Shown here: piece after piece, positions 274 to 26,409 of the stretch
Numbering within the stretch: the stretch's first letter is position 1
Layout: each line of letters starts with the position of its first letter
Source of the DNA: a virus
Lineage: Duplodnaviria; Heunggongvirae; Uroviricota; Caudoviricetes
Direction: 5' to 3' (one strand)
Length of the DNA stretch: 64,000 bases
Virus record (IMG/VR): IMGVR_UViG_2734482790_000004
The notes under the pieces: generated by a model
Told to the model about the DNA's origin: nothing
Database searches by the model: none
What the model saw: only the letters and a program-made list of their open reading frames with translations
Position numbers and translations under genes: made by a program

Positions 274-3200
274 ATGAACAAGCTATCTATGGGTGTGTTT
301 CGCTGTTCAAGTGTCAGCGAAATATTGAAATACATTAGGGCAATAACATCTCACCGAGCGCCGATTAAATACGGCGTGGAAAAGGTGGAAGGCAAAAGCT
401 ATGACCGACTGCGCCGGGAGGCGAATCAGAAGGCGATAGATTTGCTTAATTCGCTGGTGGACGGCGCGACACTGACAGATGAACAGCGCCAGATCCTGGC
501 CGGGTACACTGGTGAAGGCGGCATTGGCGGGTCCGTCTCCGAATATTACACACCAAAGCCTATCGCTGAAGGTGTCTGGGAGATCATGAAGCTCTACGGC
601 GCGGACGTAGGTAACACTCTGGAACCATCGGCGGGAACCGGCGTTTTTAATGAGACAAAACCGGTTGGTACGGTGATGACCGCGACTGAGATCAGCAGTG
701 TTTCCGGTCGTATAAACCAGTTGTTACACCCGGAAGACAGCGTACAGATTTCCCCGTTCGAACAGCTGGCTATAAACACGCCTAACGATTCATTCGACCA
801 TGTTGTGGGTAACGTTCCGTTCGGCGGTCGTGATAACACACGCAACATCGATAAGCCTTACGCAGAAGAAACGGACATGGGGTCTTACTTCATGCTCCGC
901 ATGCTGGACAAGATAAAACCTGGCGGATTCATGTGTGTGATTGTGCCGCCGTCCATTGTTTCAGGTTCAAACATGAAACGGTTACGCCTGCGCCTATCAC
1001 GGAAAGCTGAATTTCTTGGTGCCCACCGCTTGCCTACCGGTACTTTTGACGCAAACGGGACCAGTACAGTTGTTGATGTGGTGCTGATGCGCAAACATCC
1101 GGCAGAGATGGCTGAGAAAATCCCCCTGGTGGATGAAAGCACTCTCGAATCGGCAAATGTGCTTTGGCCAACGTTTATTTCTGGCAAGTGGTTTGAAAAG
1201 GACGGCCGCCGGTTTGTTCATGGCACCCAGGAAAAGGGCTTCCAGGGGCGTATTGAGGTTCGTGCCGACGGTCAGATTGATAACCAGGCTCTTAAAGCGA
1301 AGCTGATTCATCGTTTCGAAAGCCGTATCGACTGGTCTTTGCTCGATATGGCTGAACCGTCACCGACCGCAGACGTTGTTGGTGAAGGGGAAATGCGCCT
1401 GATTAATGGCGTATGGCAAAAATATGCTGGTGGTCGCTGGATTGAAGCTGATGCAGGGAAGGAACTTAAGATCGATGCTGCCAGTTATGGCGCGGATAGC
1501 TGGGAGGCTCTTCAGCGTAACCTGACTACAACAGAAGGCCGTCTCGGCATGACATTTACCCAGATGGCAAATGTCCGCGATAAGTACACCACATCAATCA
1601 GCGACGATATGGTGCAGCTGGTGGACTGGATTAACAGCCAGCCTGAAAAATACCGTGAACGCTTGTATCGCGGGGCGATGATTGGCCGGATGTTAATTGA
1701 ATATCAGGACATGAAGGCCGCCGGGCATAGTGCTGAACAAATCGAACAGCAGCGCCTTTCTCTGGTATCCCGTTTGCAGGCAGAGATTGACCGTTTTGGT
1801 AACCCCGGTCGCGGTCCGATAGCGAAATTATCGGGGAGCGGTGCGCGCGCCTGGTTTGCTTTCCGTGGTGCAATTAAGCTGGATGGCACTATTTCTGACG
1901 AGCTGACAGGAAAACTGGTTACGCATGATTCCAGCGCCAGTTATGACTCCACCAGCTATCAGGACACCCTGCGTTATCTCTACAGTGATCTCACTCGCGA
2001 TCCAATCCAGCTCGATGATTTCCGCCTTGCGTTTACCGGCGAACTGCCAGCCAGTGATGACGAGTTGCTTAATTTATTGGCCAGCACCCCTGGCATTGCG
2101 GTTTCACCGTATGGCGGGATTGTTCCGTTCGCCCGCGCCACCAGCGGCGACATTAACGAGATAGTGGCTCCAAAACAGGAATTCCTCGCCACGCTCCCCG
2201 ACGGTCCAGTAAAGAACAACGTCCTTAATCAGCTGGCAGCGATCGAAGAGAAGCGCATCAAGACGCCAGCAGAGAATATCCGCTTTAAGCTCAATAGCCG
2301 TTGGTTCGACCGTTCCGTCATTCTGGAGTTTTTGCAGGAAAACGGCTATCCGGATCTGCGCTATGTGCAGTCAGTGCAGCTGGAAGGCGACGAAATGGTT
2401 TCTGACACCTATCACGGTGGTGATGGCCTGTTCGTCGGGCACCGATACGGTGTCGTCCAGCGTAAGGATAAAGAAACAGGCGAGATCCGCTACGAGTGGG
2501 ACCGTAAATCAGGTGAAAACGCGACCGGGTTCCCGGCACAGCTGGAAAAGTATCTCAATGGTGCGCGTATCGGTGGCAAAGATAGCGCGACGGCGAACGG
2601 CTACCGCGAGCAGATGGCACTGCTTGAGGACCAGTTCAATAAGTGGATCAAGACGCACGATCGCTACGATGAGCTGGTTGCTAAATACAACGATGTGTTC
2701 AATAGCAATATCCCGTATGAACACTCTGGCGATCCGCTTGGGTTGAAGGGATTAAGCGGTAAGCGCCAGCCATTTGATTACCAGAATAGCGAGGTGCGCC
2801 GACTGTCCGAAGATGGGCGCGGCATCCTGGGCTTCGGCACCGGGCTGGGTAAAACCACGACCGCGCTGGCGCTTGAGGCGTTCAACTATGAGAACGGTCG
2901 CTCCACCCGTACTGCGTATGTAGTGCCTAAATCAGTGCTGGAAAACTGGTATTACGAAGCAAAAGAATTCCTGAGTGAAGAGGCATTCAGTAACTACCTG
3001 TTCGTCGGTCTTGATGTGCTGATGGATGGCGATCAGATTCGCCAGGTGCAGGTGCTCGATGAGAACGGTAAACCTGTTCTTGGTACTGATGGCACTCCAG
3101 TTATGCGCGATGCTCTTAAGCTGGCAGATGAAGCCACTATCACGGCGCGGATGAACGCGATCCCGCACTCAAATTACCGTGCAGTCGTGTTTACCAAAGA

Positions 3201-6200
3201 ACAATACGCCCGCATTCCGCTACGTGATGACACCGTAGATGAGCATGCACAGGATATGCTTTATGACTTCGTTGCCGCCGGACGCGTAGCCAGCGCAATG
3301 GACTCCGACTCCCACCGCAAAGAGGCCGCGCGTCGCCGGGTATTGTCGGAGTATTCAGATACCGGCACCGAAAAAGCAGAGAAGTATCCGTACTTTGAGG
3401 ATATGGGCTTCGATAGTGTGATCGCCGACGAAGGCCACAACTACCGCAATAGCTATAAAAATGGTCGCGAAGCGTCACAGCTAGCCTATCTGCCCACCAG
3501 CGCGGTAGCGCAATCGGCGCGAGATATGGCAATTAAAAACGCGTACCTGATGAAAAAGAATGGTGGGCGCGGGCCGGTTCTCCTGACTGCAACGCCAGTC
3601 GTTAACACCCCGATCGATGCATACAACATGCTTTCTCATGTTCTGCCGAAGGAATACTGGCAGAACATGGGGATCTACGGTCCTGATGACTTCGTTAAAT
3701 TCTTCGGCAAGACCAGGCTGGAAACGGTACAGAAAATTAGCGGTGAAGTTGAAGAAAAAATGGCGCTGGTGGGCTTTGAAAACCTTGATGCGCTGCGCGG
3801 TATATTCCATCGCTGGGTAACGCTTAAAACGGCGGAAGACGTTAAGGATACCGTGGAGATCCCGGAGCTGGACGAACACCAGCAGGATGCACCACTTACT
3901 GAAGAACAACTGGCGGCGTATGAAGAATTGCGTCAGCAGGCGGAAGCGGCGGCCAAAGCCAACAATGGCGTAACGACCTCGGTCAATGAAGACGGCGTGA
4001 TTGAGCACGAGAAAGCCCGTCCGATCTTCTCAATAATCAGGGATATGGACCGCGTATGTACTGACATGGACCTGTACTATCGCCGGATCACCTATCGTTT
4101 CCTGCCGGAGTACGCCGATGCGGTGCAGCAGCTGGCGGACAGTTTGCCTAAACAAGCCACCAGCGAAGACGACGACAGTGATGATTCAATCACGCAGCAA
4201 TCGCAATACTCCCTGATAGATAAGGGCGAGTTTATTCAGTTGCAGGTTCCGGAAGCGTTCGAGCAGGAAGTGAATAAGCGCCTGGCCAGGTTTGGCATTG
4301 ACGAACAGACCGTAACTCACCCCGTTACGCCCAAATACGCGAAGCTGATTGCCACGCTGAAGGAGTTTTTCCCGGAAGGTAAGCAAATCATCTTCACCGA
4401 TGAAAAAACGCAGCACCAGAAGCTCAAGCGCATTATCTGCAATGCTCTTAACCTTGAACCTTCAAAGGTGGGGATACTGAATGCTCAGACGGTTGCCGAG
4501 GCAGGTAAAACCGGTAAGAAACTGAAAGCGGTTAAACCGCCGAAAGAGTTACCGGATGAACCAACAGATGCACAGATAGCGAAATACAACGAGCAAATGG
4601 CTCTGTATGACGCCTATATCGCGCAGCAAAATGAAATGTCGTTGGGCGGTCTGGAAAAGATTGCAGCCGACTTCCAGGAGGGCCGGACTCCGATCATCAT
4701 CTGCAACAAAAAGGCAGAAGTGGGTATCAACCTGCATCGAGGAACGACTGACATCCATCATCTGACGTTGCCATGGACTCCAGCCAGTATTGCGCAACGA
4801 AACGGTCGCGGTGCCCGAGTTGGCTCCAACCGTGCAAGCGTTCGCGTTCACTACTACTGCGGCAAGGGGTCTTTCGATGAATACCGACTGAAGACGCTGA
4901 AGCGTAAAGCAGGCTGGATCTCCGATATCCTCCGTTCAGATAAGTCAGAAATGGAGAACGCCGACGCCAACGATATGATCGAAATGCAGATGTATACCGC
5001 GAAGGATGACGGCGAACGTCTGGCAATGATGCAGGTTCAAATGGATAAGGCGAAAGCTGCGAAACGCGCTCGCCAGAAAGAACAGGCTACTATCGACCTT
5101 CAGAACTACATCAAGGCGCAGCACGCAGCTGGTGAGGATGTGGAGGTACTTACCGCTGAATTGGAGCGAAGCAAAGCGGAACTTGAAAAGACCACCGCCG
5201 ACGTCGCCAAATTCAAACAGGCGGTAATGGCCAAAGCAGCTGATAACGCAGACTGGAAAGCCCGCTGGGGTAGCGTCCATCACACAGACCGTATGTTGTT
5301 AGCACAGTATCGCGCGTCGTTGAAAAGCGCCATTCAGCGCAAGGCTAATATCTCTCAGGCCATCTCCCGCTATGAGAAATTATTGAACCGTACTCAGAAG
5401 GCCGCGACGGATATCAAACGCCTGCGCCCGCTGGTGGAGGATGCAATAAATAAAGGCATTCTGGATGTTGATCCTGATCTGGTTAACCATGCGAATGAGT
5501 TCCTTGTTATCGGCGATCGCTCATGGCGTGTAGGCCAATACTATGATTGTGCCGGTGATATCGTTCGCATTAAGTCGCTGGACTTCGACAGCCAGCGCGC
5601 AGACGTGGAGATCATCTTTACCTTCAAAGGCACCAAATCGGGTAACTGGGATGTGAAGACGCTGGATAAACAGGTTGATGTAACTCCCGATGAAGATGCT
5701 GTTATGCAGAAAATCAGTGGTGGCGTCTCCATCGCCGGGATTAACGACATCGTTTCCTGTGACGATTTCTACCGTTTCCAGCAGCGCGGCATGATCAAAA
5801 TCACTGACTCATACGGCGTTCAGACTACAGAGTCAGGCTATAGCATTGATTTTGTTGGTACCTATACGGACCCACTGAAGCATGCGGTTTACCCGGATCG
5901 CCGTGACGGCGCGCTGAAGTCGTCAATTGCAAAATGGGTGCTTGGTATGATGTCGGAAGGGAATAACCGCCAGATCCGTTCGGCAGAAGCATTCCTGGTT
6001 GAACTGTTTGGCTCCAATTATGGCGATGTAATCGCGTCATACGGAGATACGCTATCCCCTGAAGCACTTCAGGAGAAAATAGCGGATGCGATCGCCAGAA
6101 TGCCGGAGAAAACAAGCCAGGGGGCTACTCGTAACGGGGATTCTGAACTTGAAGTCACCAATGCCATTTTCGGTACCAATGAGTTCCGGGCGTCAGATTA

Positions 6201-7041
6201 TGAGATCACCACAGCACAGTTTGGCACCATTGGCATTTACAGCAATAAAGCCGAGATCAAGCAGGCAATGGACGCAGCAAGCGCGCGCATCGCAGCAGAA
6301 CGGGAAGCCAATCTGAATCATGCAGTCGCCGCGCTGACTCAATCGTGGGTAACAGCAATCAGGGAGGCCGCCACCACAGGGAAAATCACACCTGCAATAG
6401 CGGATGTCGTAAACGACGGCTCTAAATTTATGGATGCCTATCAAATGGATGCGGTGAAGTTGCCATCAGCCTATGGTCAACTCAGCTATCGCATGACCTA
6501 CAACCTGGTATCAATGTTTTCCGACCTTGCCATCCTTGGGCTGGTGGATCTTAACGAGGTTACGCCGGAATTGCTCAGCATGCGCAAGAATCATGTGGAG
6601 ATATTGCAGAGAATTAACACGGTTCTTGCCGGGCGCACCGATGAAGAGAAACAGGCCGACGCTGATCGGATAAACCTGGCCCTTGGCAACATCACGGAGG
6701 AAGAGATTGCCGCCAGAAACGAGAAACAAGAAGAGTTATCATCAATACAGGGTGATGCCACCAGCATAGCTCAGTCTCTTGGTCTGAATTATCGCGTATC
6801 CACCGCCGACCTGAAGATGATGTACGCACCAAAATTCGCCGCTGGCGAGGTATTTGGGCTTCAGGAAGCCTCAGGCATGAAAGGCGTTCTTTTCCGTGCG
6901 AAAGACGCAATCAAGGCGAAATTCGGCGCTCGCTGGCTGCCAGCGAAGGCGAAGAACAGCGATTTCCCGGGTAACTGGTGGATTATCGAGACAAAACACA
7001 ACGTGGCGGACGTTCTGGCCGTCATCCAACAATACGCATAA
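274..7041 (+). CDS. darB: DarB-like defence-against-restriction protein, 2255 aa (methyltransferase-like region plus SF2 helicase)
   Basis: Single 6.8 kb ORF; length matches P1 DarB from memory; Walker A GFGTGLGKTT and DEGH helicase motifs; AAGGA SD before ATG. Confidence 0.8.
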   Translation: MNKLSMGVFRCSSVSEILKYIRAITSHRAPIKYGVEKVEGKSYDRLRREANQKAIDLLNSLVDGATLTDEQRQILAGYTGEGGIGGSVSEYYTPKPIAEGVWEIMKLYGADVGNTLEPSAGTGVFNETKPVGTVMTATEISSVSGRINQLLHPEDSVQISPFEQLAINTPNDSFDHVVGNVPFGGRDNTRNIDKPYAEETDMGSYFMLRMLDKIKPGGFMCVIVPPSIVSGSNMKRLRLRLSRKAEFLGAHRLPTGTFDANGTSTVVDVVLMRKHPAEMAEKIPLVDESTLESANVLWPTFISGKWFEKDGRRFVHGTQEKGFQGRIEVRADGQIDNQALKAKLIHRFESRIDWSLLDMAEPSPTADVVGEGEMRLINGVWQKYAGGRWIEADAGKELKIDAASYGADSWEALQRNLTTTEGRLGMTFTQMANVRDKYTTSISDDMVQLVDWINSQPEKYRERLYRGAMIGRMLIEYQDMKAAGHSAEQIEQQRLSLVSRLQAEIDRFGNPGRGPIAKLSGSGARAWFAFRGAIKLDGTISDELTGKLVTHDSSASYDSTSYQDTLRYLYSDLTRDPIQLDDFRLAFTGELPASDDELLNLLASTPGIAVSPYGGIVPFARATSGDINEIVAPKQEFLATLPDGPVKNNVLNQLAAIEEKRIKTPAENIRFKLNSRWFDRSVILEFLQENGYPDLRYVQSVQLEGDEMVSDTYHGGDGLFVGHRYGVVQRKDKETGEIRYEWDRKSGENATGFPAQLEKYLNGARIGGKDSATANGYREQMALLEDQFNKWIKTHDRYDELVAKYNDVFNSNIPYEHSGDPLGLKGLSGKRQPFDYQNSEVRRLSEDGRGILGFGTGLGKTTTALALEAFNYENGRSTRTAYVVPKSVLENWYYEAKEFLSEEAFSNYLFVGLDVLMDGDQIRQVQVLDENGKPVLGTDGTPVMRDALKLADEATITARMNAIPHSNYRAVVFTKEQYARIPLRDDTVDEHAQDMLYDFVAAGRVASAMDSDSHRKEAARRRVLSEYSDTGTEKAEKYPYFEDMGFDSVIADEGHNYRNSYKNGREASQLAYLPTSAVAQSARDMAIKNAYLMKKNGGRGPVLLTATPVVNTPIDAYNMLSHVLPKEYWQNMGIYGPDDFVKFFGKTRLETVQKISGEVEEKMALVGFENLDALRGIFHRWVTLKTAEDVKDTVEIPELDEHQQDAPLTEEQLAAYEELRQQAEAAAKANNGVTTSVNEDGVIEHEKARPIFSIIRDMDRVCTDMDLYYRRITYRFLPEYADAVQQLADSLPKQATSEDDDSDDSITQQSQYSLIDKGEFIQLQVPEAFEQEVNKRLARFGIDEQTVTHPVTPKYAKLIATLKEFFPEGKQIIFTDEKTQHQKLKRIICNALNLEPSKVGILNAQTVAEAGKTGKKLKAVKPPKELPDEPTDAQIAKYNEQMALYDAYIAQQNEMSLGGLEKIAADFQEGRTPIIICNKKAEVGINLHRGTTDIHHLTLPWTPASIAQRNGRGARVGSNRASVRVHYYCGKGSFDEYRLKTLKRKAGWISDILRSDKSEMENADANDMIEMQMYTAKDDGERLAMMQVQMDKAKAAKRARQKEQATIDLQNYIKAQHAAGEDVEVLTAELERSKAELEKTTADVAKFKQAVMAKAADNADWKARWGSVHHTDRMLLAQYRASLKSAIQRKANISQAISRYEKLLNRTQKAATDIKRLRPLVEDAINKGILDVDPDLVNHANEFLVIGDRSWRVGQYYDCAGDIVRIKSLDFDSQRADVEIIFTFKGTKSGNWDVKTLDKQVDVTPDEDAVMQKISGGVSIAGINDIVSCDDFYRFQQRGMIKITDSYGVQTTESGYSIDFVGTYTDPLKHAVYPDRRDGALKSSIAKWVLGMMSEGNNRQIRSAEAFLVELFGSNYGDVIASYGDTLSPEALQEKIADAIARMPEKTSQGATRNGDSELEVTNAIFGTNEFRASDYEITTAQFGTIGIYSNKAEIKQAMDAASARIAAEREANLNHAVAALTQSWVTAIREAATTGKITPAIADVVNDGSKFMDAYQMDAVKLPSAYGQLSYRMTYNLVSMFSDLAILGLVDLNEVTPELLSMRKNHVEILQRINTVLAGRTDEEKQADADRINLALGNITEEEIAARNEKQEELSSIQGDATSIAQSLGLNYRVSTADLKMMYAPKFAAGEVFGLQEASGMKGVLFRAKDAIKAKFGARWLPAKAKNSDFPGNWWIIETKHNVADVLAVIQQYA

Positions 7042-7515: not shown

Positions 7516-7760
7516 AAAAGCGATACTACACAGTAAAGCATGGGACGCTACGAGCATTACAAGAGTTTGCTGACAAGCATAACGTTGAGGTGCGCAGGGA
7601 AGGGGGAAGTAAAGCTCTGCGCATGTACCGTCCGGACGGGAAATGGCGGACGGTCGTCGATTTCAAAACAAACAGTGTTCCCCAGGGCGTCCGCGACCGG
7701 GCATTCGAAGAATGGGAGCAGATCATCATAGATAACGCATTGCTTCTGAATGCTGATTAA
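7512..7760 (+). CDS. lxc: 82-aa protein (size and position of P1 Lxc, C1 co-repressor)
   Basis: 82-aa ORF translationally coupled to preceding ORF; name by size and position. Confidence 0.4.
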   Translation: MKKRYYTVKHGTLRALQEFADKHNVEVRREGGSKALRMYRPDGKWRTVVDFKTNSVPQGVRDRAFEEWEQIIIDNALLLNAD

Positions 7761-7765
7761 GAACT

Positions 7766-7792
7766 CTCCGGCCTAGGGAGATTAGGCCGGAG
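7766..7792 (+). terminator. Stem-loop after lxc-like ORF (8-bp stem CTCCGGCC/GGCCGGAG), weak U-tract
   Basis: Perfect inverted repeat 7766-7773/7785-7792 followed by AT-rich sequence. Confidence 0.35.
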
Positions 7793-8090
7793 ATAAATAT
7801 ACTATATAAACTTAGATACAATATCGTGAATCTGTTGTAGCGGGATATCTTCCATCTCATTCTTAATAAGAGAGCGGTTAGATGCTGTCAGTGAAGGCCA
7901 TTTTGTTTTCCAGGCTAGATATGCTCGCCATGAGTAGCCTGTTTCGTAAGGTTTATTCATATAAGTCATTGAGTGTTCAACCGCATGTATGTATTTTTTC
8001 TCAAAATTGGTTCCTTTTACTTCAAATAAACTACCGAAATAAATAAGCCATTTTGCCAGGTGTTCATACTGCTCCCATGCGCCAGGCTTT

Positions 8091-9107
8091 TTAGTAAGTT
8101 CTATTTTTTTTATCTATTATATTACAAAAAACATTTAATACATTTTTATTATTCCAGCTATATCCAGATGATGAAATGGAGGAAATGATATGATAAAAAG
8201 AATCCTCTAGCTTCAAGAACTCTATTTTATACTCTCTTCCGTTTTTTATTACCGATTTGATTGAGTGCCTCAATTTGTCTTTTATTTTTTTTGCTTCTGG
8301 AATTTTATCGTTAAGTTTTCTAAAGAAATCAGATACCTCTGTTTTATCTATAACCCTAACCCCATAGCAGGAAAAATAGTAATCTTTAATAGGTTGCAAT
8401 AGTTCCCCTCGGGAAACAAGGAAAATATTGGAGGACATTACGTTGTCCCGTGAAAATACCTTATATTCATTTATAATAGCCTTTAGGTTCGCGTCACTTA
8501 GAGAATAGCCAAGGATAACAATAGTGTTTTCATGTAGAACTGTGCTTAGTTTATTAGAAAAGTAAGAATTACCATTTATAAATCTGAAATAATCCTCGCT
8601 AGTAACAACCATGTCTGATGGGGAGTCTATAGAACCGTGAACATGGTAGACTTTAACCTCACAATTATATTTTGGAATTGGCAGGCCGGGGGTGATTGTA
8701 CACGTTCGATTCTCTCCAGCCAGCTTTTCTGCTAACTTGTCATAATTTGTCGTAATTACTTTAAATGTGTTTTCTTTGAAAAAGTCTTGAATATATTCAA
8801 TTGATGGATCAAGTTCGATTGAGGCTATGATTTTCTCAATCTCTTGGTAAATATTTTTCCCCGAAAGTATAAATTTTAGTGCAATAACCTGAGCAGCTTC
8901 TTCAAGGCTAAGGTCTTTTGCTTTTCCATCAGGAAATAATTCCTCTTTGAGTGAGTCACCATCCTTCAATAAACCGCACAGTTGCTCCAATAAAGATTGC
9001 CAACTTGGGGCTTTATCATCAGAAACAGCCTTTGAAAATCCAGTGCCTGTAAGAAAGCACAGCCTATGTGTAGCCGCTGCATAGGCAATTTCTATATACT
9101 CGCTCAT
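8091..9107 (-). CDS. SIR2-like (sirtuin-fold) protein, 338 aa, in AT-rich islet; candidate defence gene
   Basis: Ordered motifs GTGFS (aa 21-25), TTNYD (aa 119-123), HVHGS (aa 155-159); GGAG SD 7 nt before ATG; strongly AT-rich relative to flanks. Confidence 0.6.
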   Translation of the reverse strand: MSEYIEIAYAAATHRLCFLTGTGFSKAVSDDKAPSWQSLLEQLCGLLKDGDSLKEELFPDGKAKDLSLEEAAQVIALKFILSGKNIYQEIEKIIASIELDPSIEYIQDFFKENTFKVITTNYDKLAEKLAGENRTCTITPGLPIPKYNCEVKVYHVHGSIDSPSDMVVTSEDYFRFINGNSYFSNKLSTVLHENTIVILGYSLSDANLKAIINEYKVFSRDNVMSSNIFLVSRGELLQPIKDYYFSCYGVRVIDKTEVSDFFRKLNDKIPEAKKIKDKLRHSIKSVIKNGREYKIEFLKLEDSFYHIISSISSSGYSWNNKNVLNVFCNIIDKKNRTY

Positions 9108-9163
9108 TACTTACTCCATTTACTTATAGTTCTACGGAGAAGTATACCCTAATGCATTGACGT

Positions 9164-9805
9164 TTATAGATAATTTCCTTTTCCTGTTAATACTCCCTTA
9201 GGCACCTGTTTTTGTGCCAGCGTTTGGGTGCCGCGAATTATGTTAATCAGAGGGCTTAGTAACGATGGTTCCTGGCGTGCCTCAACTTCTCCAGCCATTG
9301 CCCTGATGTAGTCGGCGCTGGCAACGTTGTTGTATTCCGTCGCAAAGCAACATAGTAACGTCAGAACATGCTCTGTCGTTATTTCGCTCCAGTTGATGTT
9401 GAAAAATTCATCGCCTTTTTTATCGTGTTCGGAATCGAAGATGCTTTGGTGGAGGATGTATTTGCCGGATTCCTTGCGCGGTAACTTGATTGCTTTCTGG
9501 CGTTCCAGCTCCTTATAAATCTGCATTGCCTCAATTAGTACCGGCCTGCCGTTCATGAAGGGATCGCGCAACCTTACACGCTGGCCAACTCGACCAGTAA
9601 TAAAGCTGTTTTCCTCTTCCACCAGCACGATAAAACCCTTTTCCTCTTTTTCTCGCAATTCGCGCAGCAGCTGGAGTTCCATATCGCGGCGGCGTTCAGG
9701 GTAGCTGGTCCGCTCAGCCATTATTAGCTCATTGTTGATCCATGCAGCAGTCATTGACGCCGGTTTGCCGACGCTCATCGAAACAACGCATATTTTCTTA
9801 TCCAT
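9164..9805 (-). CDS. 213-aa protein at the position of P1 mat (particle maturation), starting at MDKKICVV
   Basis: Backbone-like GC; internal Met with AGGGGG SD chosen over the 262-aa track ORF 9164..9952. Confidence 0.4.
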   Translation of the reverse strand: MDKKICVVSMSVGKPASMTAAWINNELIMAERTSYPERRRDMELQLLRELREKEEKGFIVLVEEENSFITGRVGQRVRLRDPFMNGRPVLIEAMQIYKELERQKAIKLPRKESGKYILHQSIFDSEHDKKGDEFFNINWSEITTEHVLTLLCCFATEYNNVASADYIRAMAGEVEARQEPSLLSPLINIIRGTQTLAQKQVPKGVLTGKGNYL

Positions 9806-9994
9806 AGCGCCCCCTACAAAAAAGAAAAGCCACCAGCGGCGGCTTAGCAATACAACTGAAGGTAGCGCCCGGTACTCAGACTGTGCCGTCCATGGAATAT
9901 TTGAAAAGGGATCCATCCGTACCGGGCATGTGATGATTCTGACTGAAGTCACTTGTCAGTTGTCAATTATTTCAGATTAAAAATAATATATTTA

Positions 9995-10555
9995 TTAGTG
10001 CATGATGTTTGCCATCTCATAGGCGTCAGCCAGCAACTCCATCTCTGACTTGTTCAGCAAGGTGAATTCTTTCTTGCCTCCAACCACACCATCGGCATGA
10101 ACAGGGACCAGCCAGGGGTATTTTTCTCTTACTTCAGCCGGTGCTGCATGCTGGTGGTGCCATCTACAAAGGGGCAATTGCTTTTTGTGACAACCCGGCG
10201 CGGTACGACCGGAGATATGGTGCAGAGATACCTCTTCAGATATTACTCCATGCATGTAGCAGGCAATGCAGGGGAGAGCGCCAAGAGCATTGGCGATGCT
10301 CCGTTCCTCCGCTGTCGATGTTCGCCCCTTCAAGCCACGAGATTTTATCTTTACCGCACTTTTCCGCGTTTTGCTGGCTGGTGGGCGCTCTTTCTGTTTA
10401 GCGATACGGCGGTCGATAGAATCCCGCATTTTCTGATATTGCGATTCTCGCCAGGCGGGGTCAGCCAACTTTTCCCGTTGCCGAGCGATCGCTCGTTCTC
10501 TGGCTGCCTTCTGCCACTCGCGGCGCTGTTCAAGTTTTTGTTCGATTGTTTTCAT
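9995..10555 (-). CDS. ref: Ref recombination-enhancement HNH endonuclease, 186 aa
   Basis: 186 aa as in P1 Ref; Cys/His cluster CIACYMHG...HHISG...CHKK...CRWHH typical of HNH. Confidence 0.75.
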   Translation of the reverse strand: MKTIEQKLEQRREWQKAARERAIARQREKLADPAWRESQYQKMRDSIDRRIAKQKERPPASKTRKSAVKIKSRGLKGRTSTAEERSIANALGALPCIACYMHGVISEEVSLHHISGRTAPGCHKKQLPLCRWHHQHAAPAEVREKYPWLVPVHADGVVGGKKEFTLLNKSEMELLADAYEMANIMH

Positions 10556-18601: not shown

Positions 18602-18802
18602 TTATCTGCTGCCCGGCATTCTCTGTTTAAGCACAACCATTTCCTGACGGCATAACACAGCAATAGCGGTCCTGGCACCAATTTGCTTACCAACCAGGTA
18701 TTGCTTTACCTCGCGGCGACTCACGCCATCAAGAAGCATCTTTAACGCTTCACGGGACAACTTGTTGTATTTACGTGCCATTAATCTACTCCGCAGAACC
18801 AT
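18602..18802 (-). CDS. 66-aa hypothetical protein downstream of doc (PdcA position)
   Basis: Small ORF, overlaps doc 3' end. Confidence 0.3.
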
Positions 18803-19166
18803 ACAATCTACGTAACGTGTCGGCGACAGAAGATACAGATATCTCGCCAGTCGCAGCGCCTACAGTAAGGTCTGCCAGTTCAGGTGAATCAAATACCTGC
18901 ACCCCGTTACGGCGTAGAAATAGCAGCGCGCTGTTTAGCGCGGTACGCTTATTGGCATCATTGAATATATGCCCTCTCGCTGTAGCCACCAGGTAGGTGG
19001 CGGAGACTTCGAAAAGGTCGGTGATATCTTCGTAGGCAACTCTGGCCTGAACTCTCCCGATAATGGCCTCTGCCCTACCCGGATCTGACATGCCCGGCAG
19101 GCCGCCGTAGCGGTTTATATTCGCATCATGAAGCGCAATAAGTTCTTCCGGTGATATATGCCTCAT
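18786..19166 (-). CDS. doc: Doc toxin (Fic-fold kinase), 126 aa
   Basis: 126 aa, translation recognised; 1-nt overlap with phd. Confidence 0.9.
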
Positions 19167-19387
19167 TATCGGTTAACCAGTTCCTTGTTGGTGGAGTCCA
19201 GGGTGTCAAACAGGGATGCAAATTCAGCATCCAGCGCCGCTTTTTTGTAGGCTTCGAAAGTAGCCTTGCTGACAATTACTGCTGGCTCACGGCCTCTGCG
19301 GGTGATTTCAACCTCTTCCCCGGCTTCAACATTGTTGAGCACTTCAGAAAGGTTGCCACGCGCGGTACGGAAGTTAATGGATTGCAT
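19166..19387 (-). CDS. phd: Phd antitoxin, 73 aa
   Basis: [41 protein letters not shown]... recognised; start taken at third codon of track ORF. Confidence 0.9.
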
Positions 19388-19396
19388 AAACACCTC

Positions 19397-19417
19397 GTGT
19401 ACTCGTTATGTGTACAC
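19397..19417. promoter_or_regulatory. phd-doc operator palindromes (GTGTAC / GTGTACAC)
   Basis: Two palindromic sites upstream of phd. Confidence 0.45.
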
Positions 19418-19563
19418 GATTATAAACTTCACAGGCATAAAGCACCAGCACTTTGCGGCTTAACAAACCTCTAGGCAGGTCATTCGTAGCCTAATGTCCG
19501 AACTGTTAAAGCATCCAAGTTGCTGTAGAATCACCGCCAATTACATAAGCCTGAAATAAGTGG

Positions 19564-21126
19564 ATGAAAATGACAAGTATTCAACAACGTGCAGAGCTTC
19601 ATCGTCAAATCTGGCAAATTGCTAACGATGTCAGGGGTTCGGTCGATGGATGGGATTTTAAGCAATACGTTCTGGGCGCACTTTTCTACCGTTTTATCAG
19701 CGAAAATTTTTCCAGCTATATTGAAGCCGGTGATGACAGCATCTGTTATGCGAAACTGGATGACAGCGTAATTACTGATGACATTAAAGACGATGCCATC
19801 AAAACCAAAGGCTACTTCATCTACCCAAGTCAGCTTTTCTGCAACGTAGCTGCGAAAGCAAATACCAATGACAGACTGAACGCAGATTTAAACAGCATCT
19901 TCGTTGCTATCGAAAGTTCTGCTTACGGTTATCCTTCAGAAGCAGACATCAAAGGTTTGTTTGCTGATTTCGATACCACCAGTAACCGCCTGGGTAACAC
20001 CGTTAAGGATAAAAATGCCCGCCTGGCCGCGGTTCTGAAAGGGGTTGAAGGGTTAAAGCTTGGCGACTTTAACGAACATCAGATTGACCTGTTCGGCGAT
20101 GCCTATGAGTTCCTGATTTCTAACTATGCCGCGAATGCCGGTAAGTCAGGCGGCGAGTTCTTTACACCGCAGCACGTCTCTAAGCTGATTGCACAACTGG
20201 CTATGCACGGGCAGACCCACGTTAACAAAATCTACGACCCGGCAGCAGGTTCCGGTTCTCTGTTATTGCAGGCTAAAAAGCAGTTTGATGACCACATCAT
20301 CGAAGAAGGTTTTTTTGGTCAGGAAATCAACCATACGACCTATAACCTGGCGCGTATGAACATGTTTTTGCACAACATCAACTACGACAAGTTTGATATC
20401 AAGCTGGGCAATACGCTGACTGAGCCGCACTTCAGAGATGAAAAACCGTTTGATGCCATCGTTTCTAACCCGCCGTATTCGGTGAAATGGATTGGCAGCG
20501 ATGACCCGACGCTGATTAACGATGAGCGTTTTGCCCCGGCTGGCGTTCTGGCCCCCAAATCCAAAGCTGACTTTGCGTTTGTATTACATGCGCTGAACTA
20601 TCTTTCGGCCAAAGGTCGTGCTGCGATTGTCTGCTTCCCGGGTATTTTTTACCGTGGCGGCGCAGAGCAGAAAATCCGTCAGTATCTGGTCGATAATAAC
20701 TATGTCGAAACCGTAATTTCACTGGCTCCGAACCTGTTCTTTGGCACCACCATTGCCGTAAACATTCTGGTTCTGTCCAAACATAAAACGGATACCAACG
20801 TTCAGTTTATTGATGCCAGCGAACTGTTCAAAAAAGAGACCAACAACAATATCCTGACCGATGCCCATATCGAACAGATTATGCAGGTATTTGCCAGCAA
20901 GGAAGATGTTGCTCATCTGGCAAAATCTGTCGCGTTCGAAGCCGTTGTCGCGAATGACTATAACCTGTCGGTGAGCAGCTATGTGGAAGCGAAAGATAAC
21001 CGCGAAATTATCAATATTGCTGAACTGAATGCAGAGCTGAAAACCACGGTCAGCAAAATCGACCAGTTGCGTAAAGATATTGATGCAATTGTGGCTGAAA
21101 TTGAAGGCTGCGAGGTGCAGAAATGA
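19564..21126 (+). CDS. hsdM: Type I R-M methyltransferase subunit HsdM (EcoR124-like, family IC), 520 aa
   Basis: NPPY motif ([10 protein letters not shown]), AdoMet motif DPAAGSGS; near-identity to remembered EcoR124I HsdM. Confidence 0.9.
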
Positions 21127-22329
21127 GCGAGTTGAGTTATCTGGAAAAATTGATGGATGGGGTTGAGGTTGAGTGGTTGCCACTCTCAAAAGTATTCAAC
21201 TTAAGGAATGGTTATACACCGTCTAAAACTAAAAAAGAATTTTGGGCGAATGGTGATATACCTTGGTTCAGAATGGATGACATACGTGAAAATGGTAGAA
21301 TTCTAGGGAATTCACTTCAAAAAAATTTCATCCTGCGCCGTAAAAGGGGGGAAACTATTTCCTGAAAATTCAATATTAATATCAACGTCGGCAACAATTG
21401 GTGAGCATGCTTTAATCACTGTACCTCATCTAGCCAATCAAAGGTTTACATGTTTGGCTTTAAAAGAGTCTTATGCTGATTGCTTTGATATTAAATTTTT
21501 ATTTTACTACTGTTTTTCTTTAGCTGAGTGGTGCCGAAAAAACACAACGATGTCCAGTTTTGCGTCTGTTGATATGGATGGATTCAAAAAATTTTTAATC
21601 CCTCGCCCCTGCCCGGATAATCCGGAAAAATCCCTTGCCATCCAGTCTGAAATCGTTCGGATTCTGGATAAGTTTACTGCACTTACCGCTGAGCTTACCG
21701 CTGAGCTTAATATGCGTAAAAAACAGTACAACTACTATCGCGACCAGTTGTTGAGTTTTAAAGAGGGTGAGGTTGAGTGGAAGACTTTGGGAACATTTGC
21801 AGATAATTTTGATTCTCTTAGAAAACCAATAACTAGTGGATTAAGGGAGACTGGAAATATTCCCTATTATGGTGCGTCAGGCATTGTTGATTACGTAAAA
21901 GATTATATTTTTGATGATGACCTGTTATTAATTTCTGAAGATGGTGCGAATCTTATTGCAAGAAATACCCCTATAGCTTTTAGCATTAGCGGTAAAACGT
22001 GGGTGAATAATCATGCTCATGTACTTAAATTCAAAAACTACACTGAACAAAAATTTGTTGAATATTACTTAAACAATATCAATCTTACGCCGTACATATC
22101 AGGAGCAGCCCAGCCAAAGCTAAATAAGAAAAACTTAGAAAGTATCCGTATTCCTAATCCATCACTAAAAGAAAAAGAGCGGATTGTTACTATTCTGGAT
22201 AAATTCGACACCCTGACTAACTCCATCACCGAAGGTCTCCCGCGTGAAATCGAGTTACGCCAGAAACAATACGAGTACTATCGTGATTTACTGTTCAGTT
22301 TCCCAAAACCTGAAACAGTCAGTAATTAA
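21123..22329 (+). pseudogene. hsdS: Type IC specificity subunit HsdS, interrupted by +1 frameshift in G6 tract (21346-21351)
   Basis: Track ORFs 21123..21365 and 21454..22329 join into one HsdS when one G is removed; conserved central TAEL repeats and C-terminal region. Confidence 0.8.
21685..21708 (+). repeat. 2 x 12-bp direct repeat encoding TAEL-TAEL in HsdS central conserved region
   Basis: ACCGCTGAGCTT x2. Confidence 0.8.
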
Positions 22330-22450
22330 TTGACCATTGCTACCGACCGGGCCACCTTAACATCCGGTCTGTATATAGACTATTTTTTACACGCTGGAAG
22401 TCGCCCTTAAAGCTCTTCCGGCCCTTGCCAGACGGCACAAAGGATGCGCT

Positions 22451-25400
22451 ATGACTCATCAGACATACACCATTGCTGAATCCAATAACTTTATCGTTCT
22501 TGATAAGTACATCAAAGCTGAGCCAACAGGCGACAGCTACCAGAGCGAATCGGACCTGGAACGTGAACTGATTCAGGACCTGCAAAATCAGGGCTATGAA
22601 TTTATACCCGTAAAATCACAGTCAGCGATGCTGGCCAACGTTCGGGAACAGCTTCAGAGCCTCAATGGTGTGATGTTTAATGACAGCGAGTGGCGGCGCT
22701 TCACGGAGCAGTATCTGGACAACCCCAGCGATGGTATTCTGGATAAAATCCGTAAAATCCATATCGACTATATTTGCGACTTTATTTTTGATGACGAGCG
22801 TCTTGAGAACATCTATCTGATAGATAAAAAGAATCTCATGCGCAATAAGGTGCAGATTATCCAGCAGTTTGAACAGGCAGGTTCTCACGCTAACCGTTAT
22901 GACGTAACTATCCTGGTTAATGGCTTGCCACTGGTGCAAATCGAACTGAAAAAGCGCGGCGTGGCGATTCGTGAGGCTTTCAACCAGATACATCGTTACA
23001 GTAAAGAGAGTTTTAACAGCGAAAACTCCCTGTTTAAGTATCTGCAACTGTTTGTCATTTCTAACGGCACCGATACCCGTTATTTTGCCAACACAACAAA
23101 GCGCGATAAAAACAGTTTTGACTTCACCATGAACTGGGCGAAATCAGACAATACACTGATTAAAGACCTCAAAGACTTTACCGCTACCTTTTTCCAGAAA
23201 CATACTCTGCTTAATGTTCTGGTGAACTACAGCGTTTTTGACAGTAGTCAGACGCTACTGGTGATGCGACCGTACCAGATTGCCGCCACCGAACGAATCT
23301 TATGGAAAATCAACAGCTCCTATAAAGCGAAAAACTGGTCTACCCCCGAAAGCGGTGGCTTTATCTGGCACACCACCGGTTCTGGTAAAACCCTCACCAG
23401 CTTTAAAGCCGCGCGGCTGGCAACAGAACTGGACTTTATTGATAAAGTCTTCTTCGTGGTCGACAGGAAAGACCTCGATTACCAGACTATGAAGGAATAT
23501 CAGCGTTTTTCGCCAGATAGTGTTAACGGCTCGGAAAATACCGCAGGTCTAAAACGAAATCTGGATAAGGACGATAACAAAATTATCGTCACCACTATTC
23601 AGAAACTTAATAACCTGATGAAAGCAGAAAGCGACCTGCCTGTATACAATCAGCAAGTGGTGTTTATATTTGATGAATGCCACCGCAGCCAGTTTGGAGA
23701 AGCGCAGAAAAACCTGAAGAAGAAATTCAAACGCTATTATCAGTTTGGTTTTACCGGCACTCCTATTTTCCCGGAAAACGCTTTAGGTTCAGAAACGACC
23801 GCCAGCGTATTTGGTCGTGAATTGCATTCGTATGTAATTACCGATGCGATTCGAGATGAAAAAGTGCTTAAATTCAAGGTGGACTACAACGATGTGCGGC
23901 CACAGTTTAAGTCTTTAGAGACAGAAACTGACGAGAAAAAACTAAGTGCGGCTGAAAATCAGCAGGCGTTTCTTCATCCCATGCGTATTCAGGAAATCAC
24001 GCAATATATTCTGAATAATTTCCGCCAGAAAACTCACCGTACCTTCCCTGGCTCAAAAGGTTTTAATGCTATGTTGGCAGTGAGCAGCGTGGATGCCGCG
24101 AAAGCCTATTATGCGACGTTTAAACGGTTACAAGAAGAAGCCGCTAATAAATCGGCTACCTATAAACCGCTGCGTATTGCGACAATCTTCTCCTTTGCCG
24201 CCAATGAAGAACAAAATGCCATTGGTGAAATTTCCGATGAAACTTTTGATACCAGCGCAATGGACAGCAGTGCTAAAGAGTTTCTGGACGCTGCAATTCG
24301 TGAATATAACAGCCATTTTAAAACTAACTTTAGCACCGACAGTAACGGTTTTCAGAACTACTATCGTGATTTAGCCCAGCGGGTTAAAAATCAGGATATC
24401 GATCTGCTAATTGTCGTGGGGATGTTTTTAACCGGCTTCGATGCTCCAACATTGAACACGCTATTCGTCGATAAAAACTTGCGTTTTCACGGCCTGATGC
24501 AGGCATTTTCCCGCACCAACCGTATTTATGATGCAACTAAAACCTTCGGTAATATCGTCACTTTCCGGGATCTGGAACGCTCAACTATTGATGCCATAAC
24601 GCTGTTTGGTGACAAAAACACCAAAAATGTGGTGTTAGAAAAGAGTTATACAGAGTATATGGAAGGCTTTACTGATGCTACTACTGGTGAAGCTAAACGC
24701 GGCTTCATGACAGTAGTTTCAGAACTGGAACAACGGTTCCCTGACCCTACCAGTATTGAAAGTGAAAAAGAGAAGAAAGACTTCGTTAAACTGTTTGGCG
24801 AATACCTGCGTGCCGAGAACATCCTGCAAAACTATGATGAATTTGCCACGCTAAAAGCCCTGCAACAAATCGATCTTAGCGATCCTGTTGCGGTAGAAAA
24901 ATTCAAAGCAGAACATTATGTGGATGATGAAAAGTTCGCTGAATTGCAAACAATTCGTCTCCCTGCTGATCGCAAGATTCAGGATTATCGTTCTGCCTAT
25001 AACGATATTCGCGACTGGCAGCGCCGTGAGAAAGAAGCTGAGAAAAAAGAGAAATCAACCACTGACTGGGATGACGTAGTTTTTGAGGTCGATTTGCTGA
25101 AGTCTCAGGAAATAAACCTGGATTATATCCTTGGACTGATTTTCGAACACAACAGACAAAATAAAGGCAAGGGCGAAATGATCGAAGAGGTCAAACGCTT
25201 AATTCGTTCAAGCCTAGGGAACCGTGCTAAAGAGGGCCTGGTGGTCGATTTTATTCAGCAAACGAACCTGGATGATTTACCAGACAAAGCCAGTATCATT
25301 GAGGCATTCTTTACGTTTGCTCAACGCGAACAGCAACGTGAAGCAGAAGCATTGATAAAAGAAGAAAATCTCAATGAAGAGGCAGCAAAACGCTATATTC

Positions 25401-25567
25401 GCACGTCTTTAAAACGCGAATACGCCACCGAAAATGGCACAGAATTAAACGAAACATTACCAAAACTTAGTCCGTTGAATCCGCAATATAAAACGAAAAA
25501 ACAGGCAGTTTTCCAGAAAATCGTCTCGTTTATTGAGAAGTTTAAAGGCGTAGGCGGAAAAATATAG
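22451..25567 (+). CDS. hsdR: Type I restriction endonuclease subunit HsdR (EcoR124-like), 1038 aa
   Basis: 1038 aa; helicase motifs GSGKT, DECHRS; follows hsdM-hsdS. Confidence 0.9.
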
Positions 25568-25645
25568 CCCAATTCGTGTTTTTCTTGCGGGTTCTTAATT
25601 AAACCCGCATGATACCATGGGGTTCCAAATGGCTAATATACTCCC

Positions 25646-25732
25646 TTACCCATGCGCGACGATGCCGCCAAAAGTGATAGAGAACAGCCAGAAATAGATC
25701 GCGGCCATAATGATTTTGAATGCCGTGTTCAT
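25646..25732 (-). CDS. 28-aa hydrophobic peptide MNTAFKIIMAAIYFWLFSITFGGIVAHG (candidate membrane toxin/kil peptide)
   Basis: AGGAG SD 7 nt before ATG; downstream of operator-like site and hairpin; below ORF-track size cut-off. Confidence 0.3.
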   Translation of the reverse strand: MNTAFKIIMAAIYFWLFSITFGGIVAHG

Positions 25733-25760
25733 ATTTTCAGCTCCTGTGATTGATTGGATA

Positions 25761-25790
25761 CATGCCGCGCCTTGCGGCATGTTTTTATTT
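25761..25790 (+). terminator. Rho-independent terminator-like hairpin (8-bp stem CATGCCGC/GCGGCATG) plus T-run
   Basis: Stem-loop followed by TTTTTATTTT on plus strand, about 200 bp after hsdR. Confidence 0.45.
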
Positions 25791-25814
25791 TCACTTTCTC
25801 TGTTTTAAAAATCA

Positions 25815-25831
25815 AGATTTATTAGAGCAAT
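25815..25831 (-). promoter_or_regulatory. C1-operator-like 17-mer, 16/17
   Basis: AGATTTATTAGAGCAAT abutting the stop of the HAD-like gene. Confidence 0.6.
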
Positions 25832-26337
25832 TATTGTTGATGAAGAAGCGCATTTTCATATTCCCTGACCATTAACGTAAGTACGCCGTGACTCCTGAAA
25901 ACACGCGCCACTTCAATCTTATCTTCCAGCGCGAACGCAATTTTACTTAGACCAATTTTCTTCAGGAGATCAATCTTTGCAGGGCCGTCATTTCTGTCAT
26001 CGGTGGCAGGACGCATAGATAGCAAAGGCTCAGCCCCATTTGTTACGTGCTTACGCAACCAAGCTCGTGTTTTATCCCTGGCTATCTCACAGCGCCCGGT
26101 TACAAACCAGAGAGTGTAAATGCTGGACAACTGGCGCACCATATCAATAACTGGAGTGATGGGAGCATCAGTGTCACAGGCAAGGTTAAACTCGTTCCAG
26201 TGCTCTGTTAATGCACCTTTGCCAGGTGGTGGAAGTAAATGCAGCCTGTCTTCCGTTGCCTCTGATATTGTTCCATCAATATCAACTATGACGATATACG
26301 GACGTTCCTGGTGTGCGTGTTTATTGAAAATACTCAA
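25831..26337 (-). CDS. HAD-superfamily phosphatase-like protein, 168 aa
   Basis: DxDGT motif (IVDIDGTIS) near N-terminus. Confidence 0.45.
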   Translation of the reverse strand: MSIFNKHAHQERPYIVIVDIDGTISEATEDRLHLLPPPGKGALTEHWNEFNLACDTDAPITPVIDMVRQLSSIYTLWFVTGRCEIARDKTRAWLRKHVTNGAEPLLSMRPATDDRNDGPAKIDLLKKIGLSKIAFALEDKIEVARVFRSHGVLTLMVREYENALLHQQ

Positions 26338-26409
26338 ATGCCCTCCTCATTGGACGAAAAAAATGCTGGTGGGCGCACTCCACCAGCATTAAAAGTGACA
26401 CTGTAACTG

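Follow-up and report, generated by a model that had tools for sequence, protein, structure and literature searches.

The window, the whole 64,000-nucleotide stretch of IMG/VR record IMGVR_UViG_2734482790_000004 analysed here, very probably harbors an EcoR124-family restriction cassette inserted in the known phd/doc-Op88/pap variable slot of a P1-like phage-plasmid, with a frameshift in hsdS that most likely leaves the element r-m-. The features on which this reading is based are as follows.

18786-19166, minus strand: doc of the P1 addiction module, backbone on the left flank (ORF; PGAP annotation of a near-identical plasmid)
19166-19387, minus strand: phd of the P1 addiction module, backbone on the left flank (ORF; PGAP annotation of a near-identical plasmid)
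19464-25642, plus strand: type IC hsd cassette, 6179 bp, without P1 homology (blastn against P1, NC_005856)
19564-21126, plus strand: hsdM, intact, 520 aa (ORF; EcoR124 HsdM match; Pfam)
21123-22329, plus strand: hsdS, frameshifted pseudogene (ORFs; Pfam of the repaired protein; EcoR124I alignment)
21319-21325, plus strand: A7 run, site of the +1 insertion (alignment to intact alleles, which have A6)
21685-21708, plus strand: TAELTAEL in hsdS, a pair of TAEL repeats within its central conserved region (EcoR124I HsdS alignment)
22330-22450, plus strand: hsdS-hsdR intergenic region with one promoter-like match, 22357-22386 (consensus scan)
22451-25567, plus strand: hsdR, intact, 1038 aa (ORF; EcoR124I HsdR match; Pfam)
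25760-25792, plus strand: hairpin followed by UUUUUAUUUU, terminator-like in the hsdR direction (-17.5 kcal/mol, z = -4.0)
25815-25831, minus strand: C1 operator, equivalent of P1 Op88/OpmgT (16/17 consensus match)
25831-26337, minus strand: pap (3'-phosphatase), P1 backbone on the right flank (ORF; PGAP; P1 homology)

Type I families are groups with interchangeable subunits that are near-identical outside the target-recognition domains (TRDs), and type IC systems typically have their genes in the order hsdM-hsdS-hsdR, hsdS being coupled to hsdM and hsdR set off by its own intergenic region. The cassette displays this order, which it shares with the type IC prototype EcoR124I/EcoR124II (plasmids R124 and R124/3); the hsdM stop and hsdS start overlap in ATGA (21123-21126) and a gap of 121 bp precedes hsdR. 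HsdM is identical to EcoR124 HsdM (chain 7bst_D) at 517 of 520 residues (99.4%; 1160 bits, full length) and contains the Pfam domains N6_Mtase (7.9e-121) and HsdM_N, with the DPAAGSG and NPPY motifs legible in its translation; PGAP places the hsdM start at 19570 rather than at the ORF start, 19564. HsdR aligns with EcoR124I HsdR (chain 2w00_A) over residues 1-1038 with 2278 bits and ~98% identity (16 differences in residues 1-1010) and is composed of HSDR_N, SWI2_SNF2, T1R_D3-like and EcoR124_C (1.9e-71) domains. These data bear out the initial annotation, which had matched the sizes of hsdM and hsdR to EcoR124I and had proposed a database search with both proteins; that search returned the IC family. 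Judged by its sequence, the locus is thus an EcoR124-family (type IC) hsdM-hsdS-hsdR cassette, and because its HsdM and HsdR are near-identical to their EcoR124 counterparts, its subunits would very likely complement those of EcoR124I, EcoDXXI or EcoprrI. By contrast, EcoKI HsdM (type IA) scored just 67 bits against the HsdM encoded here. It is therefore vanishingly improbable that the locus belongs to another type I family (IA, IB, ID or IE) or is a novel defence locus that resembles EcoR124; nothing was found in favour of such an assignment, and the full-length EcoR124 HsdM and HsdR matches refute it.

The boundaries of the cassette are sharply defined by the P1 backbone. Homology to P1 (blastn, NC_005856) has 98.1% identity up to 19463, where it ends, and resumes at 25643 on the pap side, with 96.4% identity. 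The junctions correspond to P1 positions 87970 and 84481, each within 1 bp of the flank homologies that are annotated for EcoDXXI and R124/3 in the P1 record, and the cassette stands in place of the 3488-bp pmgT-humD block of P1. The absence of a type I system from this position in canonical P1 and the 176-bp distance between hsdM and phd had both been stated previously, and both agree with our analysis: the P1 record has humD, lxr, hot, upfO/N/M and pmgV/U/T at this position, and the hsdM start lies 176 bp from the phd ATG (19387). No direct or inverted repeat of at least 8 bp is shared by the two junctions, and a transposon-like insertion was rejected on these grounds.

The terminator and C1-operator-like site that had been described as following the operon are both present. 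The hairpin at 25760-25792 has no T-run after it on the minus strand. In the window, 17 sites match the C1 consensus with at most 3 mismatches, versus 0.32 expected by chance, and the site at 25815-25831 maps, via the blastn offset, to the annotated OpmgT at 5625-5641 (coordinates of P1 locus L004). However, since P1 homology resumes at 25643, both features lie outside the acquired segment and, on the basis of this homology, are ancestral elements of the P1 backbone and not part of the cargo. In P1, OpmgT overlaps promoters that drive pmgT leftwards; the promoters at the operator here are presumed to face the 3' end of hsdR in antisense orientation. The promoter-like match at 22357-22386 is presumed to be a separate promoter for hsdR, for which it is weak evidence because the consensus scan gave fewer matches in this region than expected by chance. 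The same scan found no match upstream of hsdM (19464-19563), and promoter positions therefore stay presumed.

The arrangement between phd/doc and pap is an ordinary one that is already known. EcoR124 loci, like the locus here, have P1-derived sequence 3' of hsdR, and Tyndall et al. 1997 (Mol Microbiol 23:729), cited in PMC12707154, describe in their title type IC hsd loci flanked by P1 DNA. In PLSDB, 471 plasmids cover 80% or more of 19000-26400 at a single location, against 4 that cover 80% or more of the block found in canonical P1. Thus, among sequenced P1-like plasmids, the phd-pap slot usually holds the hsd cassette and only rarely the content of canonical P1. The cassette, which had been taken for a second acquired defence locus, is therefore no unusual acquisition: the arrangement has been known since 1997, and the GenBank record of P1 itself annotates it. 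The E. coli plasmids NZ_AP027903.1 and NZ_CP080135.1 and the phages phi456 and vB_EcoM-673R5 carry their cassettes in the same phd-pap slot with the same flanks; DNA identity with these P1-like phage-plasmids is 96-97% outside the TRDs, while the TRD2 modules differ. Among P1-like phage-plasmids with hsdMSR in this slot, most hsdS genes are intact and some are disrupted by ISEc68 or ISApl1. Chromosomal copies of the hsdS allele found in the window adjoin homologues of P1 humD (86%) and hot (90%). The only feature specific to the copy in the window is its pseudogenised hsdS.

The hsdS gene is split into an 80-aa reading frame (21123-21365) and a remainder in the +1 frame that continues as far as 22329. 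The insertion sits at codons 65-67, within TRD1, and the shifted frame terminates at the stop at 21363-21365, leaving a stub with 66 native residues that is devoid of most of TRD1 and of the dimerising helix. Deletion of one A from the A7 run yields a 401-aa HsdS ORF with two Pfam Methylase_S domains. Alignment to the K. pneumoniae plasmid CP094899 contains a single gap (A7 versus A6), TRD1 being otherwise identical, and the intact alleles at loci L006, L008 and L011 likewise align with one gap and zero mismatches over TRD1; no second, compensating indel is present in hsdS, as the alignment has one gap only. The run is A6 in L001, L002 and L006-L009 and A7 in the independent assembly L005, and PGAP annotates hsdS of a near-identical plasmid as two separate CDS. 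The initial annotation named an hsdM-hsdS-hsdR operon; our analysis shows that it is not intact: an open frame in all three genes is needed for an active member of the family, not for homology, and hsdS is broken.

A single-base homopolymer difference is the commonest type of long-read error, and the intactness of hsdM and hsdR would also fit a wholly intact, functional operon to which sequencing or assembly had added an A. This explanation is nevertheless very unlikely. In a collection of independent public assemblies, 133 index blocks contain precisely this 80-aa stub, all 24 stub-containing contigs that were read have the same neighbourhood, and one of these, a Logan assembly, matches the window at 100% identity over 5966 bp. 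The frameshift also occurs in plasmid unnamed2 of E. coli GmM062, whose sequence departs from the window at other places, and the 291-aa downstream hsdS fragment (P0048) is recorded on 61 contigs. Given the 133 index blocks and at least two further assemblies, sequencing error was rejected as the cause of the frameshift; the occurrence of the A7 allele in independent assemblies means that it is a real circulating mutation.

The three conserved regions of HsdS (N-terminal, central and C-terminal) are identical to those of EcoR124I HsdS (chain 7bst_A), including TAELTAEL, in agreement with the initial annotation. PMC12707154 lists the targets GAA(N6)RTCG for EcoR124I and GAA(N7)RTCG for EcoR124II, with a footnote on four extra residues, and gives EcoDXXI and EcoprrI a central region that is four residues longer and N7 spacers. 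As the HsdS here has two TAEL repeats, like EcoR124I, a 6-bp spacer in its target would be predicted by analogy. By contrast, neither TRD could be aligned in register with the EcoR124I TRDs, and an intact allele would therefore have a different target. The earlier observation that both TRDs are unlike those of EcoR124I is thus upheld, but the different specificity that had been deduced from it is probably unexpressed because hsdS is frameshifted. No PLSDB record at 80% coverage or above has the same TRD combination; among complete E. coli genomes, 1322 of 5426 match this hsdS query and a single record has the same TRD combination, frameshift included. No characterised enzyme with these TRDs was identified, the source naming only a "restriction endonuclease subunit S", and a scan of IMG/VR for the TRD1 tract with either A6 or A7 gave 0 matches and is uninformative.

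In an intact system, HsdS and two HsdM subunits form an M2S methyltransferase that deposits m6A on a bipartite target, which in this case would be specified by the two TRDs and a 6-bp spacer. With HsdR added, the complex becomes an endonuclease that translocates at the expense of ATP and cleaves incoming DNA that is unmodified. The change from A6 to A7 truncates the specificity subunit to its 66 native residues, and without HsdS the element would be r-m- although hsdM and hsdR are intact. Because methylation and restriction both need HsdS, the element is most likely r-m-, with its restriction cassette probably switched off. The absence of decay in hsdM and hsdR would allow for an hsdS mutation that is recent, reversible or partly bypassed. 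The C-terminal part of hsdS is still open: an ORF of 291 aa begins with the TTG at 21454, and an ATG at 21550 lies in frame immediately ahead of the central conserved region. A C-terminal fragment could in principle be produced. A chromosomal type IC system of the host could also provide HsdS in trans.

A rival reading is that the A-run works as a switch, or that the frameshifted hsdS retains activity. Three routes are possible: replication slippage may toggle A6 and A7 in ON/OFF phase variation, transcriptional slippage may yield a little full-length HsdS, or, like the truncated HsdS of EcoR124I, EcoDXXI and NgoAV, a half-HsdS made up of the central region, TRD2 and the C-terminal region may dimerise to create a new palindromic specificity. 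Truncated type IC HsdS proteins are active with altered specificity, as described for EcoR124I-delta, GAA(N7)TTC, and EcoDXXI-delta, TCA(N8)TGA (PMC12707154), and for NgoAV (PMC7383803); the in-frame ATG at 21550 directly precedes the central conserved region, and hsdM and hsdR are still intact in a widely sampled lineage. Taken jointly, however, the three routes are unlikely. The A7 run (A6 in intact alleles) falls short of the 9-base threshold for mononucleotide phase variation in hsd genes (PMC7383803). In NgoAV from Neisseria gonorrhoeae, a change in homopolymer length shifts the hsdS frame, as it does here, but the tract is a poly-G of variable length (PMC7383803). Known hsdS switching tracts sit between the TRDs (PMC7383803), and a truncated product of the NgoAV type therefore keeps a whole TRD and helix and stays active. 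The A7 run is instead located inside TRD1, which does not fit the position of a phase-variable hsdS, and its stub, with little of TRD1 and no dimerising helix, is too short to be functional. Moreover, the internal ATG has no Shine-Dalgarno-like sequence in front of it, and the remaining start candidates are TTG or ATT codons. All A6 copies of the allele that were found lie in chromosomal loci, with hsdM and hsdR 3-4.5% diverged from the window, and none was found in the same plasmid background; A7 was found only in the P1-like plasmid context. It is thus quite improbable that the A7 allele acts as a low-rate reversible switch, limits expression through slippage or provides a dimerising C-terminal half-HsdS with a new palindromic specificity. 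If it did, this would explain why hsdM and hsdR have stayed intact, and a switch or slippage would keep restriction low in a phage-plasmid that must enter new hosts repeatedly.

Under the preferred reading, that of a cassette inactivated by the hsdS frameshift, the locus should be labelled an EcoR124-family (type IC) hsd cassette containing an hsdS pseudogene and be left out of any count of active or newly acquired defence systems. The importance of this finding beyond annotation is small. However, hsdS has been knocked out repeatedly in P1-like cassettes, by a frameshift here and by IS insertions elsewhere, and the number of active systems is therefore overestimated where hsdM and hsdR alone are scored, a point that, together with the occupancy of the phd-pap slot, is useful to those who catalogue the defence genes of phage-plasmids.

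The initial annotation had described an EcoR124-like type IC hsdM-hsdS-hsdR operon beside phd/doc; this holds for the most part, with the exception of hsdS, and the family assignment proved correct. The genes of the region are arranged as follows:

18786-19166, minus strand: doc, left of the hsd cassette
19166-19387, minus strand: phd, left of the hsd cassette
19564-21126, plus strand: hsdM, a 520-aa ORF
21123-21365 and 21454-22329, plus strand: the hsdS position, two ORFs of 80 aa and 291 aa in different frames
22451-25567, plus strand: hsdR, a 1038-aa ORF
25831-26337, minus strand: pap, right of the hsd cassette

The phd and hsdM ATG codons are 176 bp apart, as had been stated. HsdM matches EcoR124 HsdM (PDB 7bst_D) from end to end with 1160 bits, differing at 3 of 520 residues, while the score against EcoKI HsdM (type IA) is 67 bits. 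HsdR likewise shows an end-to-end match to EcoR124I HsdR (2w00_A) with 2278 bits and 16 differences within residues 1-1010. The Pfam domains are N6_Mtase and HsdM_N in HsdM, and HSDR_N, SWI2_SNF2, T1R_D3-like and EcoR124_C in HsdR. Because of these full-length matches and domain contents, the cassette can be securely assigned to type IC.

The operon is, however, not intact, since hsdS is frameshifted at a run of seven A residues (A7, 21319-21325). Alignment of window 21100-21800 with CP094899, a K. pneumoniae plasmid whose hsdS carries the annotation of an intact gene, contains one gap in 701 columns, at which the A7 of the window faces A6; the remainder of the first target-recognition domain (TRD1) is identical. 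Translation from the hsdS start yields 66 native residues and then 14 out of frame before it stops at 21363-21365, and deletion of one A restores a 401-aa ORF with two Methylase_S domains. The repaired HsdS is identical to EcoR124I HsdS in its N-terminal 20 residues, its central region (TAELTAEL) and its C-terminal region, but neither TRD aligns in register; TRD1 covers about residues 21-150 and TRD2 about residues 225-330. Thus, both the EcoR124I-like conserved regions with TAEL repeats and the difference in both TRDs claimed in the initial annotation are borne out, in the repaired protein.

The frameshift is real and is carried by several independent records. The exact 80-aa stub is present in 133 index blocks of a public assembly collection, and one neighbourhood recurs in all 24 stub contigs read: lpa, pdcB, pdcA, doc, phd, hsdM, the stub, the 291-aa fragment and hsdR. 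One of these, an ERR7420927 contig, contains the A7 run and shares 5966 bp with the window at 100% identity. E. coli GmM062 plasmid unnamed2 (NZ_JCANKX010000003.1) is also 100% identical across hsdS, with two S fragments annotated by NCBI PGAP; elsewhere it is 99.5% identical over 9975-47835 and has other content around 7760-9975. The window, a P1-like phage-plasmid whose genes include darB, ref, a cre-like integrase, c1, pacAB, lpa, pdcAB and doc/phd, is near this plasmid and not identical to it, being another member of one lineage.

Between darB (274-7041) and ref (9995-10555), the slot that holds res/mod (EcoP1I) in canonical P1, the window encodes a 338-aa SIR2_2-domain protein (8091-9107, minus strand; Pfam 7.8e-24; PADLOC PDC-S25 3.9e-25 and ThsA 5e-18). 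GmM062 unnamed2, the closest complete plasmid, has other genes at this position, and no family match was found for the neighbouring 262-aa ORF (9164-9952).

Three intact 401-aa proteins (P0001-P0003) are ~100% identical to the repaired HsdS, and their loci are all chromosomal and all A6. In the chromosomal A6 loci the DNA of TRD1 and TRD2 is the same as in the window save one base, while hsdM and hsdR differ by 3-4.5%; such shared TRDs on diverged hsdM/hsdR read as the usual modular TRD exchange. No A6 copy of this hsdS allele was found in a P1-like plasmid background. Chromosomal type IC loci are common in E. coli, where the hsdS query matched 918 chromosomal places, and those with this hsdS allele adjoin metG/mrp and are flanked by homologues of P1 humD and hot. 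In L008 (1351-2090) and L011 (1332-2071), E. coli chromosomal contigs with the intact allele, humD-like (86%) and hot-like (90%) P1 genes precede it, and homology to the window begins exactly at 19465, the left end in the plasmid, and ends at the hsdR stop codon (25567).

Homology to P1 (NC_005856) ends at window position 19463 and restarts at 25643, delimiting a non-P1 cassette of 6179 bp (19464-25642), with no repeat of at least 8 bp found at its junctions. The junctions correspond to P1 87970 and 84481. On the doc/phd side, a P1 GenBank note records a match of 98% identity to the "sequence upstream of EcoDXXI hsd locus", with its end at P1 87969; on the side of Op88, the C1 operator near pap, two matches end at P1 84482, one of 96% identity to the "sequence downstream of EcoDXXI hsd locus" and one of 98% identity to the "plasmid R124/3 sequence downstream of hsdR gene". 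Judged by these boundaries, the window cassette is the EcoDXXI/R124/3 cassette in the same location. The block that canonical P1 has at this location, pmgT-humD, counts among the eight variable regions listed when 54 representative P1-like phage-plasmids were surveyed (PMC9603915).

The hsd arrangement (window 19000-26400) is present at 80% or more in one place in 471 PLSDB plasmid records and in two phage records, phi456 and vB_EcoM-673R5. The canonical P1 segment from phd to Op88 reaches at least 80% in one place in four PLSDB plasmids, and 77% in a few more. Among P1-like plasmids sequenced so far, the form that carries hsd is the rule. Type IC hsd loci flanked by P1 DNA, the arrangement met here, were reportedly described by Tyndall et al. 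in 1997. The suggestion of a notable second acquisition is therefore unsupported, as this configuration was already known in 1997 and occurs in these elements more often than any other.

Downstream of hsdR, a hairpin at 25760-25782 (-17.5 kcal/mol, z = -4.0) resembles a terminator for transcripts running the same way as hsdR, because UUUUUAUUUU follows it on the plus strand; no T-run follows it on the minus strand. An operator-like site (25815-25831, minus strand), of a kind strongly enriched across the window, agrees with the C1 consensus in 16 of its 17 positions and coincides exactly with the annotated P1 Op88/OpmgT. The terminator and operator noted initially are thus present after hsdR, but they are not part of the acquired cargo, as both fall within the P1 backbone to the right of the junction at 25643. 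The P1 promoters overlapping Op88/OpmgT drive pmgT leftwards; with C1 inactivated, their counterparts in the window (about 25787-25830, minus strand) would be predicted to read via a small ORF (25646-25780) antisense into the hsdR 3' end. This ORF (minus strand, 44 aa, PGAP WP_001312275.1) belongs to the P1 backbone, with Op88 on one side and the cassette junction on the other, and is without annotation in P1. It stops at 25646, 3 bp into the backbone from the 25642/25643 junction, and an internal ATG after GGAG would yield a ~28-aa hydrophobic peptide. A second hairpin (25588-25609, plus strand, GCGGGTT...AACCCGC; -17.3 kcal/mol, z = -3.2) is located 21 bp past the hsdR stop within the cassette-specific 75 bp, with no T-run after it on either strand.

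Other copies of the same cassette have hsdS interrupted by ISEc68 (NZ_CP089136.1, PLSDB match H34), ISApl1 (CP100027.1, PLSDB match H42) or IS1 (chromosome NZ_CP141736.1, match H81). Together with the frameshift, these IS-split copies suggest that hsdS of type IC loci has been inactivated repeatedly. In the P1-like phage vB_EcoM-673R5 (ON470615.2, L012, 2069-8020), the annotation divides hsdM into two pieces and hsdR into three, reflecting either locus decay or poor sequence quality.

For the intact allele, the expected target would be bipartite with 6 bp between its halves, because its HsdS has two TAEL repeats, as in EcoR124I (GAA(N6)RTCG), and lacks the four extra residues of N7 type IC members. 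Type I systems need HsdS in the M2S methyltransferase and in the R2M2S endonuclease alike (PMC12707154); as hsdS is broken here, the plasmid is most probably r-m-. It is improbable that the break instead acts as a switch or that the open C-terminal HsdS fragment is active. The latter retains a low probability because activity is known for truncated HsdS proteins of type IC. The fragment offers two candidate starts, TTG at 21454 and, in frame and immediately upstream of the central conserved region, ATG at 21550; neither has a convincing ribosome-binding site. As for switching, A7 is shorter than the 9 bases used as the criterion for calling an hsd gene phase-variable through a mononucleotide tract, and hsdS switching tracts known elsewhere lie between the TRDs, where the truncated protein keeps a TRD and helix (PMC7383803), whereas the window tract falls within TRD1 and leaves a stub too short to function. 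The sole point specific to this locus is a circulating hsdS frameshift allele, which most likely silences the system.
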